Positions 36,484 through 43,003 of a stretch of DNA of 64,000 nucleotides are shown piece after piece. The DNA is from Chthonomonadales bacterium. GTDB taxonomy: Bacteria; Armatimonadota; Chthonomonadetes; Chthonomonadales; CAJBBX01. The stretch spans positions 130,817 to 194,816 of the forward strand of contig DAIDHP010000005.1 of the NCBI GenBank assembly GCA_027459625.1. The letters are read 5' to 3'. The translations under genes and the position numbers were made by a program. The notes beneath the pieces were generated by a model. That model made no database searches. It saw only the letters and a program-made list of their open reading frames with translations, and was not told the DNA's origin. Numbering within the stretch: the stretch's first letter is position 1; every line of letters begins with the position of its first letter.

Positions 36484-37599
36484 TCACGCGATCTGTCGCT
36501 GAAGATACCCCCTTATCGGTTTTGCCGCATCCTCCGGATTGCACGGTATCGAGAAGAGGAATCCCTGCATCAGAGAGATGCCGGCGCGAAGAGCGACCCG
36601 CATCTGATCAATTGTTTCGATACCCTCCCCTATCAATGTGGCTCTAACACTTTGCGCTGACATGCAGATTCGATCCATTTCCAGCCGTGCATTTGCGTTA
36701 GTCACCGCTACGGCGATCAATGTTGCATCCATTTTGGCGTAATCCGGGTTCAATTTTTCAATCAATTCGACTGCAATGCGGCCTCTGCCAAGATTGTCCA
36801 ATGCGAACTTTGCCCCCATCGCGTGGATGTACCTTGCTATGTCACGCAGTATCTCCAAGCTCATGGCGCTCTCCGCTTCAACCGCTTCGAAAACCAATCT
36901 TTCTGGTTTCAATCCTATCTCTTTCGCATCCTCAAAAGTGCATTTCAGTGCGCTGTCAGGATCGCCAATGGCGTTTGGAAGAAAGTTGATGAATATCAGC
37001 GCATCGGACTGATCCACCTGAGCGGCCGAGCGAATGGCGCACTGACGCGCCATTCCATCCAACTGATCCATAAGGTTCAGCCTTCCGCAAGCGTGCAGGA
37101 GTTCGCCTGCGAATATCACTTCGCCTGTGAAGGGATGATGCGCCCGCACCAAAGCCTCGTACGCCACAACCCTCATCGTTCTGGCGTCCAAAATGGGATG
37201 AAACACGCTATACAAAGAGCCTATGTTAAGTATCCGCCTAGCCCATTCAACTTCAGTCTGTTCGAAAAAGACTGGGAGAGGTTCCGCCTGAAGGAAATCC
37301 CGATACGTGAATTGACGCCGATTAGCATCACTAATGAATATCCCTTTGATGCGAGAATGAAGCAAGGAAGGTATGCCGGTCCATAAGGCGGATTTCAATT
37401 CACTCATTCGTTGAAGCGGAAAATCCAGTAACACGGAGCAACCAAGCGATATGAAAGGGATTTTCGATTTCGCTATGGATCGCTTTAGTTCAGATTCCGA
37501 TATCCGATCCATGGGCGTCAGTAACACGTTGTATCTTGGATCTATCGCTTTCCAATTCAGGCAAGGACATTCGACGCACTTTCTATTGTCGCAATCCAT
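36484..37599 (-). CDS. EAL-domain protein (c-di-GMP phosphodiesterase-like)
   Basis: FHPI, YEALVR, INF, FEAVE, ALDNLG (canonical DDFG), YAKMD, EGIE and QG. ATG at 37599 has a GGAGG SD. Cys-rich N-terminus. Confidence 0.85.
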   Translation of the reverse strand: MDCDNRKCVECPCLNWKAIDPRYNVLLTPMDRISESELKRSIAKSKIPFISLGCSVLLDFPLQRMSELKSALWTGIPSLLHSRIKGIFISDANRRQFTYRDFLQAEPLPVFFEQTEVEWARRILNIGSLYSVFHPILDARTMRVVAYEALVRAHHPFTGEVIFAGELLHACGRLNLMDQLDGMARQCAIRSAAQVDQSDALIFINFLPNAIGDPDSALKCTFEDAKEIGLKPERLVFEAVEAESAMSLEILRDIARYIHAMGAKFALDNLGRGRIAVELIEKLNPDYAKMDATLIAVAVTNANARLEMDRICMSAQSVRATLIGEGIETIDQMRVALRAGISLMQGFLFSIPCNPEDAAKPIRGYLQRQIA

Positions 37600-37888
37600 C
37601 TCTTCGCCTCCCCCTTGAACTACCATCTCTAAATGGATTTTCGGCGTTTATGCGAAATATCTTCATTGAAGTGACGTCGATTTGGAAATAATAATAAAAG
37701 GAGGTTTTTTTCAAAAGGAGATATTGGAATATCTTTTGAGGTGATTGTAAATTCAAAATCTAACGCTATGATCGCTCATTTCACACTCCCCTAATCACAT
37801 GGAATGCGAATGTCGCCATTTTTGTGGTTTATATGGTTTTAAACGGGTTTGAAGTATGTTGTTGTCCATGCCTCTTGAAGAAAACCCT

Positions 37889-40800
37889 TTATGTCCGGGA
37901 GCAAATCAATCTAAACGCACATATGCGACACTCATAACCAGGATTGGTTGAGGAGCAGCCTTCCCCCAAGCTTTTTATGATGCCCCTATATTTTTCAATT
38001 CTCCGAAGTTCTCGGGGAGTGTCCATGTCCACTTTCATCGTTTCATTGTCGTACAGCGAATAGAGAGTGATTTCAAATTCAATTTCCGGTAGGGATTCCA
38101 TCACCGCCTTCCTTAGAAGCGCGATTTCCGGCAAGTTCTTATCCTCCCTCCTTATCGGATCCAACAAAAAAATGTATATAATCCAATGATTCCTCTCGCA
38201 TTCCGAAATGTAATCCGTGGGTATTCTGATGGTTCCGTAATCCAGCGAGAGGACGATATTAGTAGGGGGGATAGGTTTTTCGCGGAGGGTCAATTCCCTG
38301 TAGTTTTCCAACAACCTCCTCCCGTAATTCTTTAACCTAATCGAATACTGATTATCTGGCACACCCGGTGCATTCCACTCCTCTTCGTATTTGAAGATAT
38401 CCTCTTCACGAGATATCACCGCCCCGTTTATACTTCTATCCCGCATATCACGAATTCGCGACATGACAAGATGTTGAAACCAACCGTAATGCCTTCGATT
38501 GAAAATGGTCGGAAAGCCAAACTGTGTCAAATAATGATATCTTCTCGGACATTTTTCAAATTGCTGCAATCCCTGCCAAGTCACATCCGGTTTATGATCT
38601 TGCAAGGTTCCCGCTGAAATCAATGAATCCTTGTCGATTAGCGGGTTAACGTCCAAATTTGGTTCCTTATAATAAACGGAGGGGGGGATGACGTTGTTTA
38701 TGAGGTCAATAAAATCATTCGCGGATTTATTCAAGTCGGTATGCAATAAAGTAAGACGGTCCATGGCGCGGCTTACCCCGACGAAATATAACCGCATCTC
38801 CTCCTTATCTGAATCCGGATTATAAAATGGCAGCAACGATTGCAACGTCCCTCGTCTTCTGGTTTTCATCTCCTCCAAAAACGGAATGATAACGGAGGGG
38901 AATTCAAGGCCCTTTGACTTGTGAAGAGTCATCACACGCACGGCATTTACATAATCCATGTGCTCGGATGCGTTGATTTTCCCACCCATATCCAAGTTCT
39001 CCACCAATGCCACCCAATCTAGAAATTCACCGATTCCGGGGGAATCGCCGTCGATATGCCGATTGGCATGTGAATGCAAAAGAAAAAGAAACTGGTTGAG
39101 TACAATCCTCTCCTGCAACGCCTCAACGCTATTCTCCAGCAATAGACGACGAAGATAACCGGAAAGCGTGTAAAGATAGTGCGTGAGCAACTTGAAGGGA
39201 TTTTCGATCCGGCACAGTGTGTCCATGTGGCTTTCAAAAAGGCTCGTATCTGTTTCGTCGTTCGAACTCTCTGATTGCCCCCCTTTCCCTCGATACTCCG
39301 CAAATTGCAGGATGCGATCCTTTGAGACCGCATCGCCATTCCTGCAATAGCTTAAAATAGCGAGCATATCCTTTACACTGTTCCGATCCGTTAAACTTCC
39401 AAGAAACAACGTCGGAACTCGATTGGATTCCATGTATCCCGACACAGTTTCCGCTTGGTCATATGTCCTGCATAAAATAACCTGAGAGGAATAAGGAACC
39501 CCTTGGCTCTTGTCCTCGTTTATTATTTGAACCATTGCGGATAGTTGATCATTCTTATCATTCGCAGCGATATTACGGATTGTCGCCTGTTCGTTTTTTC
39601 GATGAGGAAGCCACCTTTCCCGTTTCACCCCGTTATTCTCATGGGTTGCAATTTGATTGAGCATATCTACGATAACAGGCTGTGAGCGATAATTTCTCCG
39701 TAGATTCATCACTTTGGCGTCGTGATAACGATTGGAAAACTCACGAAAATTCTCCCCATACGCCCCCCTGAAACCATAAATAGCCTGTCGGTTATCCCCG
39801 ACCGCCCATAGACCCCTGCCATCTCCGGAAAGCAATTCAATCAACACCGTTGTCGCTCGATTGATATCCTGATATTCATCCACGAGAATGTGAGGAAATT
39901 CTGTTCGGATTTGCAAAAGCGCCTCGGGGAAGGATTGAAGGATTCTCACCGGTTGCGCGATCAAATCGCCGAAATCCATCCGCCCCTCCTCTCGAAGGAT
40001 CCGATCCCACTCCTCGTAGACCTGCGAGAATTTGAGAACACGATCTCTCTTCTCCGATTCATTGATCTCCCCCTTGATTTCGGAGGAATAATCAGGAAGG
40101 TTGTCCGGATATAACAGTTCGTCCTTGCATCTGGAAATGGTGTAATAGATGTTTCTAAAATACCTTATGGGATCTTTCAAACTGCAAGCGACATAAGGGG
40201 ATAGGTCCAACCTTTCGAGATATCGCTCCATGAGGGGTATGGCGTCCACTTCATCAATCAGCGTCGCGTTTTGAGAGAAATTGATAAGGTTTCCGAATCG
40301 TCTAATGAGTTCGAGACCAAAGGAGTGAAACGTCCCAATCCATATCCGCTCCGCCGCATCGGGGTAGGACTCCTCCACGCGATGATACAGTTCCTCCGTT
40401 GCGTTATTGCTGAAAGTCAGGATAAGTATGTTTTCCGGATGCACCCCATTGCTCAACAGGTATTCCGCATGAGAGATCAACGAGGTCGTTTTACCGGTGC
40501 CGGGTCCTGCCAACACCAATGTCGCGCCATCCTCGCATGCAATCGCTCGCCTCTGTGAAATGTCCGCTTGTCCTTTGCGCTTCAGCACAGGCGTTTCCAT
40601 GGGGATGTCCGGCAGCAAAGCCTCTATCAACTGAGTGTGAATCAACTCAGGAGCGATTCCAACATGTTCACTAATCTCCTTGGCGTCCATACCATTCATG
40701 AATAAATCGCGCGCAACGGGTATCGGCAGAAGGAACTCGACGGCGAAAACACTCGCCTCCATCTCCCGTCTCTCTTTGAGGGAGTATCCAAGCCTCTCGC

Positions 40801-41161
40801 TCCATACGGACGATGCAGCTTTTGGATGAGGCAGGGATGGCATGAATTCGGGCAAGCACACGGTGATGTGTCTTCGAAGATGAAGATGCGCCAATTCATG
40901 GGCGAGATAAAACGGAAGCATCGAGGGATTTGCATCTTTGGAGTACCAGATGGATTGCGCCCCCCTGTCAAGAACGGAAATGGCGCCGTATAAGAGGGGA
41001 TCATTCGGGGGAAGAGCGTATTTGGAGTAATCTTCCAGTTCCAGCGCGACACTCAGAAGATCATCCGAGAAAGGAAGAGATGACGATAGTCCCGATTTGG
41101 AGGATAGAACCGTTTCCCTATACTCGCGTGCACGCTGGCGAATGAGACGCCATCTATTCAT
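37889..41161 (-). CDS. IrrE/ImmA (DUF955) metalloprotease - UvrD/PcrA SF1A helicase - Fe-S PD-(D/E)XK-like fusion protein
   Basis: HELAH (aa 88-92, nt 40886-40900) and EMEASVFAVEFLLP. Helicase motifs GPGTGKT, LTFSN, GTFHSF, VDEYQD, VGDNRQAIYGFRGA, NYRS, TLHKSKGLEF, EEMRLYFVGVSRA. C-terminal CPRRY plus CRICAFRLIC. Confidence 0.88.
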   Translation of the reverse strand: MNRWRLIRQRAREYRETVLSSKSGLSSSLPFSDDLLSVALELEDYSKYALPPNDPLLYGAISVLDRGAQSIWYSKDANPSMLPFYLAHELAHLHLRRHITVCLPEFMPSLPHPKAASSVWSERLGYSLKERREMEASVFAVEFLLPIPVARDLFMNGMDAKEISEHVGIAPELIHTQLIEALLPDIPMETPVLKRKGQADISQRRAIACEDGATLVLAGPGTGKTTSLISHAEYLLSNGVHPENILILTFSNNATEELYHRVEESYPDAAERIWIGTFHSFGLELIRRFGNLINFSQNATLIDEVDAIPLMERYLERLDLSPYVACSLKDPIRYFRNIYYTISRCKDELLYPDNLPDYSSEIKGEINESEKRDRVLKFSQVYEEWDRILREEGRMDFGDLIAQPVRILQSFPEALLQIRTEFPHILVDEYQDINRATTVLIELLSGDGRGLWAVGDNRQAIYGFRGAYGENFREFSNRYHDAKVMNLRRNYRSQPVIVDMLNQIATHENNGVKRERWLPHRKNEQATIRNIAANDKNDQLSAMVQIINEDKSQGVPYSSQVILCRTYDQAETVSGYMESNRVPTLFLGSLTDRNSVKDMLAILSYCRNGDAVSKDRILQFAEYRGKGGQSESSNDETDTSLFESHMDTLCRIENPFKLLTHYLYTLSGYLRRLLLENSVEALQERIVLNQFLFLLHSHANRHIDGDSPGIGEFLDWVALVENLDMGGKINASEHMDYVNAVRVMTLHKSKGLEFPSVIIPFLEEMKTRRRGTLQSLLPFYNPDSDKEEMRLYFVGVSRAMDRLTLLHTDLNKSANDFIDLINNVIPPSVYYKEPNLDVNPLIDKDSLISAGTLQDHKPDVTWQGLQQFEKCPRRYHYLTQFGFPTIFNRRHYGWFQHLVMSRIRDMRDRSINGAVISREEDIFKYEEEWNAPGVPDNQYSIRLKNYGRRLLENYRELTLREKPIPPTNIVLSLDYGTIRIPTDYISECERNHWIIYIFLLDPIRREDKNLPEIALLRKAVMESLPEIEFEITLYSLYDNETMKVDMDTPRELRRIEKYRGIIKSLGEGCSSTNPGYECRICAFRLICSRT

Positions 41162-41843
41162 GATCTTTAATCGAGGTATCCTCGGATAATATTTTCAGCC
41201 AATTCGACTTCTCTTCATCAGACATATCCTCGCACTCCTTAATCGCCGACGAGAATGAAACGAGGGATTTTGAATGCGGTTTTGACTGCGAGTAAAACTC
41301 GATTGAATATTTTCTCGGGGGCTCGAATAACTCATCAAAAACTGACTTTGGCTCATTACCTAATCTTGGAGGAGCATAGCAGACAATTCCCATAAAGCCT
41401 AATTTAAACATACCTTCCGGTATATTAATCTCTCTATAGAGCATTCTCCAAAAACGACGCGGGATGCTGGACGCTTCCAACAAACCGTGATCCAGCTTCG
41501 CAAGGACGGAGAACCCAACCTTCAAGGATCTCGCAACATCCTCCGGGCGCTTGTTTTTCCTACGAATCAATGAGAATAGCGAAGCGTCGTTAACCGAACC
41601 TTGCTCCTCCCTGTTTCCAAGAGCATTTTGCAAAATTTGGTTTGCTCGCACGGAATAAAAGTCGTATTGAGGATCGCCTGCAGGTTCCGTTTCCAAGAAG
41701 AGTTCATTATGCTTAAGTATGGCGTACTCTATTATCTCCTCGCGGTACGAGGGATACTTATCGATCCATCGTAGCAGATCAATACTTCCGCCTGGCTTCG
41801 AATAGCTCTCTATCTCCGCTATGATATCCGTTATGTCCGTCAT
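41154..41843 (-). CDS. Hypothetical protein with central XRE-like HTH; candidate repressor/anti-sigma
   Basis: 229 aa. Segment PEDVARSLKVGFSVLAKLDHG…IPRRF resembles an XRE HTH. Stop overlaps the helicase start by 8 nt. Confidence 0.6.
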   Translation of the reverse strand: MTDITDIIAEIESYSKPGGSIDLLRWIDKYPSYREEIIEYAILKHNELFLETEPAGDPQYDFYSVRANQILQNALGNREEQGSVNDASLFSLIRRKNKRPEDVARSLKVGFSVLAKLDHGLLEASSIPRRFWRMLYREINIPEGMFKLGFMGIVCYAPPRLGNEPKSVFDELFEPPRKYSIEFYSQSKPHSKSLVSFSSAIKECEDMSDEEKSNWLKILSEDTSIKDHE

Positions 41844-41999: not shown

Positions 42000-42713
42000 T
42001 TATTTTTGCATCAATGTCCGAATTGATTTAATATAATTCCTGACTGTCCTGGAGGAACATCCAATTATTGTCGCGATCTCCTCCTGAGTATAACCCTCTT
42101 CAAGCAAAAAGACTATTAAGGAATGAGGAAATGTGAGCTTATCGTATTGAATTTTCGTTAACACTATATCCTCGGGATTCCTATCATCCCGCAACCCATC
42201 CTCCAAACTCCCATTTCCTTCATCGTCATCATACTGATTCGGATGAGTCTCCATTTTCCACCTTTTAACGCTTGACCCGATTTTGGTTGATATCAGCTTG
42301 TGAACGCAGGATATGAAATTGACCTCCCAAAACTCATGCTTCTCCGTCAAATCCATCACATTTACAATCAAATCGTGGAGGACATCATACGCGACATCCT
42401 CAATGTGACTATGATTCAAGGTGCAGTGATGTTTGAGAGTGTTCCAAACAATGATCTTTCCTCGATTAAACACCTCCGTCAGCAGTATGTCCTTGGCGGC
42501 ATTGTCCTCGTATTTTATGGCGCGTCGCGTGAAGTGTATGAGAGTCTCCATGCGAGGATAATTGCAATTATCCCTATCCTTAATCGTGGCGTAATAGAGC
42601 AACTCCTTTTTGGAGAGCTTGATCCATGAGCAAATCTGTTCCTCAACGAGCGGATCACGCTTATAACCTCTGGATAATACACACGGCTCGGATTGATGCC
42701 ACTCATAACCCAT
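42000..42713 (-). CDS. Divergent sigma-70-like factor
   Basis: Region 4 HTH EGYTQEEIATIIGCSSRTVRNYI, a region 2-like segment IEDVAYDVLHDL…FWEVNF, and an N-terminal extension. ATG at 42713 preferred to the ORF-track start at 42767. Confidence 0.65.
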   Translation of the reverse strand: MGYEWHQSEPCVLSRGYKRDPLVEEQICSWIKLSKKELLYYATIKDRDNCNYPRMETLIHFTRRAIKYEDNAAKDILLTEVFNRGKIIVWNTLKHHCTLNHSHIEDVAYDVLHDLIVNVMDLTEKHEFWEVNFISCVHKLISTKIGSSVKRWKMETHPNQYDDDEGNGSLEDGLRDDRNPEDIVLTKIQYDKLTFPHSLIVFLLEEGYTQEEIATIIGCSSRTVRNYIKSIRTLMQK

Positions 42714-43003
42714 TGTGAATATCTCTCTATAAGATATATCTGTTAAGATAAGGAAATGCGGAAACACGATTTAACACAGATATTTTAACGCAAAAAAAAT
42801 TCATAGTCAATCATTTTGAATAAACCCATCCGTCTCGGATGGACAAATGAATGAACGGACTTGGTTTTTCGGAGGCAGGAAAACTTTTCCCTGCCATCCA
42901 TATTATCACACAGCACTCATTGCCCGATCGTTTAAATATCGTGGAAGCGACATAATTGTCCTCGCATGACCTTTGCCGCGAACCACACCATTCATCCATC
43001 CAT

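Follow-up and report, generated by a model that had tools for sequence, protein, structure and literature searches.

The C-terminal domain of a 1090-aa protein encoded in the window (the whole stretch of 64,000 nucleotides that was analysed, positions 130,817 to 194,816 of contig DAIDHP010000005.1 from a Chthonomonadales bacterium) is predicted to be a pseudo-nuclease, in which the metal-binding and general-base residues for DNA cutting have apparently been lost. It is probably a non-nuclease part of a sensor, with a DNA-handling or scaffolding role, and, with sequence, structural models and analogy taken together, we lean towards an iron-sulfur pseudo-nuclease that would hold or split DNA for a helicase-gated protease. 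No published description of this fusion, or of the gene cassette to which it belongs, was found in the searchable literature.

The gene occupies positions 37889..41161 of the reverse strand, on which all features given below also lie, with the stop codon at 37889-37891; by the ORF list, translation and Pfam domains it is a fusion of an M78 peptidase, a UvrD-type helicase and a Cas4-AdnA-like domain. The M78/IrrE-type metallopeptidase domain (aa 66-174, 40640..40966) matches Pfam PF06114 above the cut-off (E = 2.3e-5), and its HELAH motif (aa 88-92) is at 40886-40900, coordinates that were confirmed by translation. The SF1A UvrD/PcrA-type helicase core follows at aa 202-812 (38726..40558; Pfam UvrD-helicase E = 5e-62, UvrD_C E = 3e-28), with the Walker A sequence GPGTGKT at 40487-40507 and DEYQD at 39866-39880. 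A linker (aa 816-860, 38582..38716), modelled with pLDDT <50 at aa 834-854, connects the helicase to the Cas4/AddB/AdnA-type PD-(D/E)XK-fold domain (aa 861-1090, 37892..38581), which is predicted to be catalytically dead on the basis of Pfam, the AdnA profile match and AlphaFold2/Foldseek. All sequence elements named in the original prediction were found at their positions when the translation was checked, and the majority of genomes from its family and order have a full-length orthologue of the fusion.

The peptidase and motor sites of the fusion protein are intact. The HExxH zinc site and the downstream conserved Glu of M78/IrrE/ImmA/CapP metallopeptidases are present, and H88, E89, H92, E133 and E142 are nearly invariant among 27 full-length relatives (alignment A2). 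The same alignment shows motor motifs I-VI (GPGTGKT, DEYQD, VGDxxQxIYxFRGA, NYRS, TxHxxKGxE and VxxSRA) to be intact in the window protein and invariant, and the full-length model matches UvrD and PcrA in Foldseek with E = 1e-30. In NCBIfam the fusion fell short of the equivalog cut-offs of PcrA, UvrD and Rep, with only sub-threshold matches to PcrA, UvrD, AddA and RecB, and so it is not an orthologue of PcrA, UvrD or Rep. The proposal that the protease is the output of the protein fits this conservation of peptidase and helicase catalytic residues across the family alignment.

By both profile and model comparison the C-terminal domain has a RecB-like PD-(D/E)XK fold, and this assignment is well above chance. 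The isolated domain matches Pfam PDDEXK_1 with 29.7 bits (E = 8e-7); the alignment covers only profile positions 6-109 of 247, so that the catalytic half of the profile is unmatched. The score falls stepwise from 123 bits in a canonical relative, through 37-44 in other family members, to the 29.7 of the window protein, in which half of the profile aligns. A profile built from 37 homologous domains and searched against the PDB aligned residue by residue with the AdnA nuclease domain (E = 2.4e-11). The AlphaFold2 model of the domain (pLDDT 89.2) matched ACE1, AdnA, Cas4, AddB and Dna2 in Foldseek with E-values of 6e-9 to 1e-3 and probability 1.0, the best match being ACE1 (E = 6e-9). The comparison of a structure model with AddB and AdnB had been proposed together with the original prediction, and AddB is among the matches. 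The full-length model (pLDDT 79, pTM 0.79) superposed on AddA, AdnA and RecB with an rmsd of 19-30 Å and did not show the domain in the position, behind or beside the motor, that its counterpart has in AdnA.

Four cysteines mark the domain most clearly. The first predicted cluster ligand, Cys871, opens the sequence CPRRY (aa 871-875, 38537..38551), which aligns with AdnA at its CP(L/R)R helix, while predicted ligands 2-4 are found at the extreme C-terminus in CRICAFRLIC (aa 1078-1087, 37901..37930), as C1078-x2-C1081-x5-C1087, a spacing identical to that of AdnA CANCPVRSSC. C871, C1078, C1081 and C1087 are the sole invariant residues of the domain in an alignment of 37 domains (alignment A1), and together with A1019 they are the sole invariant C-terminal residues in the 27 full-length proteins of A2, which share about 26% identity. 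The AddB/AdnB/Cas4-type staple noticed earlier is therefore both present and family-invariant. By analogy with AddB, AdnA and Cas4, we infer that these cysteines hold an iron-sulfur cluster. Two extra cysteines, C988 and C1069, are found near the site in the window's genus.

The active site tells a different story when its residues are mapped on AdnA, in which H833, D920 and D934 are the metal ligands, K936, K939 and S940 hold phosphates, and the D934A change abolishes the nuclease (PMC8789073). In the HMM alignment, the window protein has Q896/H897 at H833, D983 at D920, I997 at D934, L999 at K936 and P1002 at K939. At the motif I position (Gln896-His897, 38471..38476), column counts give His in 86/127 relatives; the window's genus has Gln there, with His one residue further on. 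Asp983 (38213..38215), within PTDYI (aa 981-985, 38207-38221), is the surviving motif II Asp, as had been suspected, and 89 of the 127 relatives have an acidic residue (Asp or Glu) in this column. The remnant of motif III reads WIIYIFLLD (aa 993-1001, 38159..38185), with Ile997 (38171-38173) at the acid position and Leu999 at the Lys position, which bears out the earlier observation that D/E-x-K is missing. The family consensus RRIRTGR aligns here with AdnA VDLKTGK, and the three nearest relatives read WIIYKFLLD, in which the Lys is at the acid position and not at the Lys position; codon 997 is ATT (Ile) in the window versus AAA (Lys) in same-genus orthologues. Where AdnA has QLAMY, the window has EIALL (38114..38128), so that both Gln and Tyr of QxxxY are missing, and these columns hold Gln in only 6/127 and Tyr in 15/127 relatives.

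The loss is not limited to the window. A word-based homologue search with the C-terminal region returned two close relatives, and an exhaustive representative search returned 39; P0005 (2448 aa) and P0007 (3173 aa), with 10-14 short repeated stretches, were excluded as likely repeat artefacts. Among 127 homologous domains, the acid position is occupied by Arg or Lys in 98 and by Asp or Glu in five, the basic residues are found on both sides of the tree, and D...[D/E]xK is kept in only two. The original prediction had asked whether the loss of Lys is general, and had considered strain-specific decay in the case that homologues keep DxK; the counts point to a general loss. Judged from these alignments, the loss of catalysis is old and family-wide and is not strain decay, although some members may still cut DNA, since the M78-fused relative P0009 retains D...DYK. 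Most relatives also keep basic residues matching the phosphate-contacting K936 and K939 of AdnA (in RRIRTGR). As these are Leu999 and Pro1002 in the window, DNA is less likely to run through the canonical groove here than in the other family members.

In the window's genus the domain is under purifying selection. Compared with the same-genus orthologue, its dN/dS is 0.20, close to the values for the peptidase (0.17) and the helicase (0.17), while the linker evolves nearly neutrally (0.93). Because the basic groove residues are also lost in this genus, the part that is still needed is more likely to be the Fe-S subdomain and the scaffold than the old active-site groove.

The fusion gene is the third in a conserved cassette. 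Immediately upstream is a gene for a 229-aa partner (41154..41843), the presumed protease substrate, whose stop overlaps the start of the fusion gene; a partner homologue stands at position -1 on the same strand in 66/90 loci, and the protein itself gave no match in Pfam (including no Pfam HTH), PADLOC or NCBIfam. The first gene of the cassette (42000..42713) is sigma-70-like with a region 4 HTH (Pfam Sigma70_r4_2, E = 1.9e-6), its start at 42713 having been set by alignment with a same-genus locus, and homologues of it are at position -2 in 63/90 loci. The cassette of sigma-like protein, small partner and fusion is thus co-oriented, running from 42713 to 37889 on the reverse strand of the window, and has the same order in 63-66 of the 90 loci.

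What follows the cassette depends on the lineage. In loci outside Armatimonadota, Multi_ubiq-E2, JAB-E1 and DUF6527 come next, and these make up a Type I Bub operon. In the window an EAL gene is found downstream, with BubAB, BubCD and BubE not directly downstream, and other Armatimonadota loci have housekeeping genes in this place. DUF6527 was absent from the window's genome and from 39 of 40 relatives in a search that matched the control genome; the Prok-E2_E search gave no match in any genome, controls included. As Armatimonadota copies are found without a ubiquitin-like operon in the genome, the switch may be re-usable for another output. PADLOC returned only generic GajB/UvrD-type helicase matches and no specific defence system. 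We also considered the cassette as a replacement of the SOS response and rejected this, since LexA is above the cut-off in 39/41 related genomes, that of the window included.

To hypothesize, the C-terminal domain would be a cap for the 3'-5' helicase that binds DNA ends or forks and splits strands but does not cut, with the AdnA Fe-S subdomain and RecC as precedents. Engagement of DNA by the motor and cap would license the N-terminal M78 peptidase, which would then cut the small partner encoded just upstream (its cleavage being assumed), and this in turn would release or activate the sigma-like protein. In this form the fusion would be an analogue, with a helicase fused in, of the CapP/CapH switch that ssDNA activates. 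The original prediction of a dead cap holds for the retained fold, the four-cysteine staple and the absence of the canonical catalytic set, while its DNA-threading or sensing role stays at the level of a suggestion. A more extended version, which we offer only tentatively, is that the Fe-S pseudo-nuclease serves as the sensing head of a proteolytic switch gated by the motor. The UvrD-type motor would track along abnormal DNA, the cap would recognise an end or fork and leave it uncut, and this would turn on, in the same polypeptide, the M78 peptidase, which would set free a private sigma factor. The Armatimonadota version of the switch may have been uncoupled from mobile Bub ubiquitin-like operons and become a chromosomal cassette, which some three quarters of the searched related genomes carry, and which would work beside LexA and control a regulon.

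Several other readings of the domain have to be weighed against the non-cutting cap. It could still be a nuclease with a non-canonical site, cutting both DNA and (through the peptidase) the partner, because PD-(D/E)XK enzymes can, as is generally known, relocate catalytic residues within the fold, and the charged residues that are near D983 in sequence (E987, E989, D1001, R1004 and R1005), with H897, might rebuild a metal site around it. The survival of D983, the frequent Asp or Glu in its column, the purifying selection on the domain and the single relative with D...DYK are consistent with this. We nevertheless regard it as unlikely, since apart from the cysteines no polar or charged residue is conserved across the family domain, the acid position has become Arg or Lys in most of the 127 domains, the Pfam profile is unaligned over the catalytic half of the window domain, and one substitution at the acid position is enough to inactivate AdnA (PMC8789073). 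Alternatively, the domain could be a scaffold or docking module only, whose metal-stapled fold lends stability to the helicase, or is a binding site for the partner or the sigma-like protein, and does not itself touch DNA: catalytic and phosphate-contacting groove residues are gone in the window's genus (I997, L999, P1002), selection is still strong in spite of this, and the residues conserved family-wide are only the cysteines, A1019, G1068, P872 and R873. What makes this reading doubtful is that in most of the family the former active site has a strand rich in Arg and Lys (RRIRTGR), which is suggestive of phosphate binding, and that the Fe-S subdomain of AddAB reportedly contacts DNA ends or forks, as does that of AdnAB (see below).

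Since only the cysteines are conserved without exception in the domain, and the window's genus has C988 and C1069 as extra cysteines near the site, the cluster itself might be the sensor: a [4Fe-4S] cluster that is oxidised, nitrosylated or lost would change the domain and gate the protease in response to redox state or NO, besides or instead of DNA. However, the intact ATP-driven DNA motor argues for a DNA signal, and in AddB, AdnA and Cas4 cysteines in this pattern serve simply as a structural staple, so we give this idea little credence. Finally, the window protein is the most degenerate member of the family, with the lowest Pfam score and half of the profile aligned, and Ile997 is found in the window alone, with Lys in the three nearest relatives, which could suggest a functionless remnant decaying in this strain. 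This is contradicted by the selection and family data and is highly improbable: the dN/dS of the domain is on a par with that of the catalytic domains and far from that of the linker, every relative carries an unbroken, full-length copy of the domain, its model reaches a pLDDT of 89, and the loss of DxK is old and family-wide. The reading that we keep is the non-cutting cap.

The known DNA-damage-responsive immune regulators CapW, CapH with CapP, and CapK with CapS sense free ssDNA passively. If our reading is true, a protein in which a CapP-type protease is combined with a full ATP-driven DNA motor and with an Fe-S nuclease fold that does not cut would be an active, tracking sensor, and the dead nuclease would be the clearest clue that the fusion protein reads DNA rather than degrading it. 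The family-wide replacement of the metal-binding Asp by Arg or Lys would additionally offer a simple, testable signature by which such sensors could be separated from AddAB/AdnAB-type resection enzymes in genome annotation.

For the working of a dead nuclease in a helicase machine, the precedent is RecC of RecBCD, which is said to carry an inactivated RecB-type nuclease fold that serves as a channel or guide for ssDNA. RecC is a model for the window domain and not a relative; it is a separate subunit with no cysteine cluster, and the comparison made here concerns the fold. The AddB/Cas4 family of Fe-S nucleases, including ACE1 (the Argonaute-associated Cas4 enzyme, PDB 9IAB and 9IAC), shares the RecB-like fold and the four-cysteine staple; unlike the window domain, which keeps the motif II Asp only, these enzymes retain D, (D/E)xK and QxxxY and cut DNA. 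The AdnA nuclease domain of mycobacterial AdnAB (PDB 6PPJ, 6PPU and 7SJR) matches best in sequence of all the solved structures and also matches strongly in fold, and in AdnA, as in the window protein, the C-terminal domain is carried by a UvrD-like SF1 protein and has C...C-x2-C-x5-C ligands. The Fe-S subdomain of AdnA lies at the Y junction, where it contacts the fork and separates the strands (PMC8789073). AdnA differs in being an active nuclease (H833, D920, D934, K936), where the window has Ile for D934 (Arg in most relatives) and Leu for K936, and in being part of a heterodimer for break resection that has no peptidase.

On the peptidase side, IrrE/DdrO of Deinococcus and ImmA/ImmR of ICEBs1 are described (PMC12828697) as pairs in which DNA damage leads an M78 (COG2856) metallopeptidase to cut a repressor; IrrE and ImmA are stand-alone proteins with no motor or nuclease-fold domain, and a sigma factor plays no part in these pairs. 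Closer in arrangement is CapP, an M78 protease that is activated by ssDNA and cleaves CapH, an HTH repressor (PMC13373217); the two regulate CBASS, Bub and other operons, and are found in 31% of Bub operons. CapP and CapH share with the window cassette an M78/IrrE-type peptidase encoded beside a small partner and, with the copies outside Armatimonadota, a place upstream of immune operons. The window cassette differs in that its partner matched no Pfam HTH and no Bub operon was found in the genome, and in that it adds a sigma-like protein; and, unlike CapP, its peptidase forms one protein with a complete UvrD-type motor and a predicted Fe-S pseudo-nuclease.

The fusion gene (37889-41161, minus strand) encodes a protein of 1090 aa, in which Pfam places an M78/IrrE peptidase domain at aa 66-174 (HELAH at aa 88-92), a UvrD-type helicase from aa 202 to approximately 812 (E = 5e-62) and, at aa 864-963, a low-scoring PDDEXK_1 hit restricted to profile positions 6-109 of 247; searches against PADLOC and NCBIfam gave generic UvrD-type matches only. 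The original prediction had proposed an iron-sulfur stapled nuclease domain that seems to have lost catalysis, and translation of the window recovers every motif it had read, all on the minus strand: CPRRY (38537-38551), PTDYI (38207-38221), WIIYIFLLD (38159-38185) and CRICAFRLIC (37901-37930). A profile of 37 homologous domains matched the nuclease domain of mycobacterial AdnA (E = 2.4e-11) and, more weakly, AdnB, ACE1 and Cas4. The AlphaFold2 model of aa 849-1090 (mean pLDDT 89.2) was matched by Foldseek to ACE1 (E = 6e-9) and AdnA (E = 2e-6), as well as to Cas4, AddB, Dna2 and RecB, all with probability 1.0. The AddB/AdnB/Cas4-type domain is therefore borne out by the profile match to AdnA and by structural matches that include AddB and Cas4, and we assign the C-terminus, on profile and model, to the Cas4/AddB/AdnA type. 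The full-length model (pLDDT 79, pTM 0.79) superposes on AddA, AdnA and RecB only with an rmsd of 19-30 Å and does not show an AdnA-like position of this cap.

In AdnA, the metal ligands are His833, Asp920 and Asp934, the D934A mutation inactivates the nuclease, Lys936, Lys939 and Ser940 contact phosphates of the 5' tail, and the iron-sulfur subdomain occupies the Y junction, holding the two unwound strands apart (PMC8789073). The HMM alignment sets AdnA LDRL...VVVDLKTGKS...QLAMYQLA...CANCPVRSSC against the family consensus rPDev...vlRRIRTGR...aallrlA...CprCpfffiC, and places the window's Q896 (with H897 adjoining) at H833, D983 at D920, I997 at D934, L999 at K936, P1002 at K939 and EIALL at QxxxY. 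With D983 opposite D920 the motif II Asp survives, as had been suspected, and the second metal ligand is absent; the missing Lys of the D/E-x-K motif is likewise seen in I997 and L999, and the domain aligns to AdnA without the catalytic Lys, the phosphate-binding Lys or the Q/Y pair. The four proposed Cys ligands are present as C871, C1078, C1081 and C1087, and in an alignment of 27 full-length relatives (~26% identity), chosen by coverage alone, these and A1019 are the only invariant positions of the last 230 residues. The same alignment has H88, E89 and H92 of the peptidase nearly invariant and the helicase motifs invariant; the zinc peptidase and the SF1A motor are intact. Alignment and model together show aa 861-1090 as a predicted nuclease fold that keeps its staple and has no catalytic centre. 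The domain holds two extra Cys, C988 (38198-38200, minus strand), common to the three closest relatives, and C1069 (37955-37957, minus strand), whose column has Cys in only a few of 127 aligned domains and which, nine residues N-terminal of C1078, could be an alternative ligand.

These 127 homologous domains come from whole genomes of the window's relatives, from a GTDB species genome scan and from 1.8 billion representatives, which were searched exhaustively with HMMER. The acid position is Arg or Lys in 98 of them and Asp or Glu in 5, and the complete D...[D/E]xK is kept in only two (L108, truncated N-terminally by the contig end, and the M78-fused P0009), so strain-specific decay is rejected and the loss of DxK is general among homologues. 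The Lys position has a basic residue (Arg or Lys) in 84/127, the motif II position an acidic one (Asp or Glu) in 89/127, and the motif I His is found in 86/127, with Gln (6/127) and Tyr (15/127) rare at the QxxxY positions. The replacement is old: in a tree of 88 full-length proteins, the deepest well-supported split separates two groups, each of which has members with a basic residue at the acid position. The set is partly Cys-selected, as ORFs were chosen by the C-x2-C-x5-C pattern; in the locus lists, this pattern occurs in every M78-fused ORF that no contig end truncates.

Within the window's genus, Nei-Gojobori comparison with the same-genus orthologue (82% identity) gave a dN/dS of 0.17 for the peptidase, 0.17 for the helicase and 0.20 for the C-terminal domain, which contradicts neutral decay of the latter; sequence evidence thus indicates that the domain is still needed. 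The linker at aa 816-860 (38582-38716, minus strand) has a dN/dS of 0.93, evolves almost neutrally, is 51% identical to its orthologue and is modelled as disordered (pLDDT <50). The PDDEXK_1 profile is matched over its whole length by the canonical L108 (123 bits) and by other family members (37-44 bits), and over its N-terminal half only by the window (29.7 bits), whose copy is, judged by sequence, the most degenerate of the family. The genus has a long stem branch (1.7 changes per site), and the window's three nearest relatives read WIIYKFLLD, with Lys at the acid position, whereas Ile occurs in the window alone (ATT vs AAA).

An active domain with a relocated catalytic site is unlikely, because Cys is the only polar residue that the family conserves throughout. 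The cluster could also act as a redox sensor, an idea that found no support here. Most relatives keep at the old active site an Arg/Lys-rich strand, RRIRTGR, which looks like a metal-incapable phosphate-binding groove. As this strand is lost in the window's genus, we weight the iron-sulfur subdomain and a scaffold role above groove threading for the window's protein, for which a purely docking or scaffold domain is the strongest rival.

The fusion gene is accompanied by genes for a sigma-like protein and a small conserved partner and is third in a co-oriented cassette (minus strand), behind a sigma-70-like gene (42000-42713; region 4 HTH, Pfam) and a gene for a 229-aa protein (41154-41843) that has no family match in Pfam, NCBIfam or PADLOC and whose stop overlaps the fusion gene start. 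Homologues of the upstream genes hold the same positions in 63-66 of 90 loci, and the cassette occurs in Armatimonadota, Alphaproteobacteria (some plasmid-borne), Verrucomicrobiota, Acidobacteriota, Myxococcota and others. Directly upstream of the sigma-like gene, a 76-nt block (42752-42827, minus strand) is near-identical to that of the same-genus locus L031 and better conserved than the surrounding coding sequence; it contains a predicted near-consensus sigma-70 promoter (TTGACT, 17-nt spacer, TAAAAT; 42782-42810), and alignment with L031 favours ATG 42713 over GTG 42767 as the gene start. In one related genome, lexA (G030:C5:29199-29810) lies on the other strand, ~100 bp upstream of the cassette region as extracted, which may be coincidence.

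In phyla other than Armatimonadota, three genes come after the cassette (Multi_ubiq + Prok-E2_E, Prok-JAB + ThiF, and DUF6527), exactly the set of the described Type I Bub operon (BubAB, BubCD, BubE), 39% of Bub operons being adjoined by CapW or CapH+CapP, with no helicase mentioned (bioRxiv 10.1101/2024.11.21.623953). Bub-associated fusion proteins form one strongly supported clade in the tree of 88. Several such proteobacterial loci (L036, L057, L068, L070) also have, no more than a few kb from the cassette, a gene for a large SMC/YhaN-like AAA ATPase of 875-1191 aa, and L035 has a 1367-aa protein with a DUF559-like C-terminal tail; these neighbours point to defence-island surroundings. In Armatimonadota, where about 32/40 related genomes have the fusion gene in its sigma / partner cassette, it is followed by housekeeping genes (SDR, rimI, tsaD). 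DUF6527, the Bub marker, is missing in the window's genome and in 39/40 relatives; therefore, the output there is not a ubiquitin-like operon, and this cassette form is Bub-less and largely order-wide. A substitute for SOS was also considered and rejected, since LexA is present in almost all related genomes. The EAL-domain gene directly downstream in the window (36484-37626, minus strand; Pfam E = 1.5e-35) recurs in a same-genus genome (L002, position +1), and it is probably outside the cassette, since other Armatimonadota loci have different neighbours.

CapP, an M78 protease, is activated by ssDNA and cuts the repressor CapH (PMC13373217). For the fusion protein we infer that the motor would load onto ssDNA or a DNA end, and that the C-terminal domain, which an iron-sulfur cluster would staple as it does AddB, AdnA and Cas4, would bind the end or fork or split the strands without cutting. 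This engagement would switch on the peptidase, which would cut the 229-aa partner and free the sigma-like protein. The literature searched gave no description of the fusion, of the Asp-to-Arg/Lys change seen across the family or of the cassette with the sigma-like gene. The components themselves (M78 protease switch, UvrD motor, Fe-S nuclease fold, and inactive nuclease folds within helicase machines) are already known. The iron-sulfur subdomain of AdnA is a precedent for end or fork binding or strand splitting by the C-terminal domain, and RecC, with its dead nuclease-like domain, is a further precedent for a nuclease fold that does not cut.
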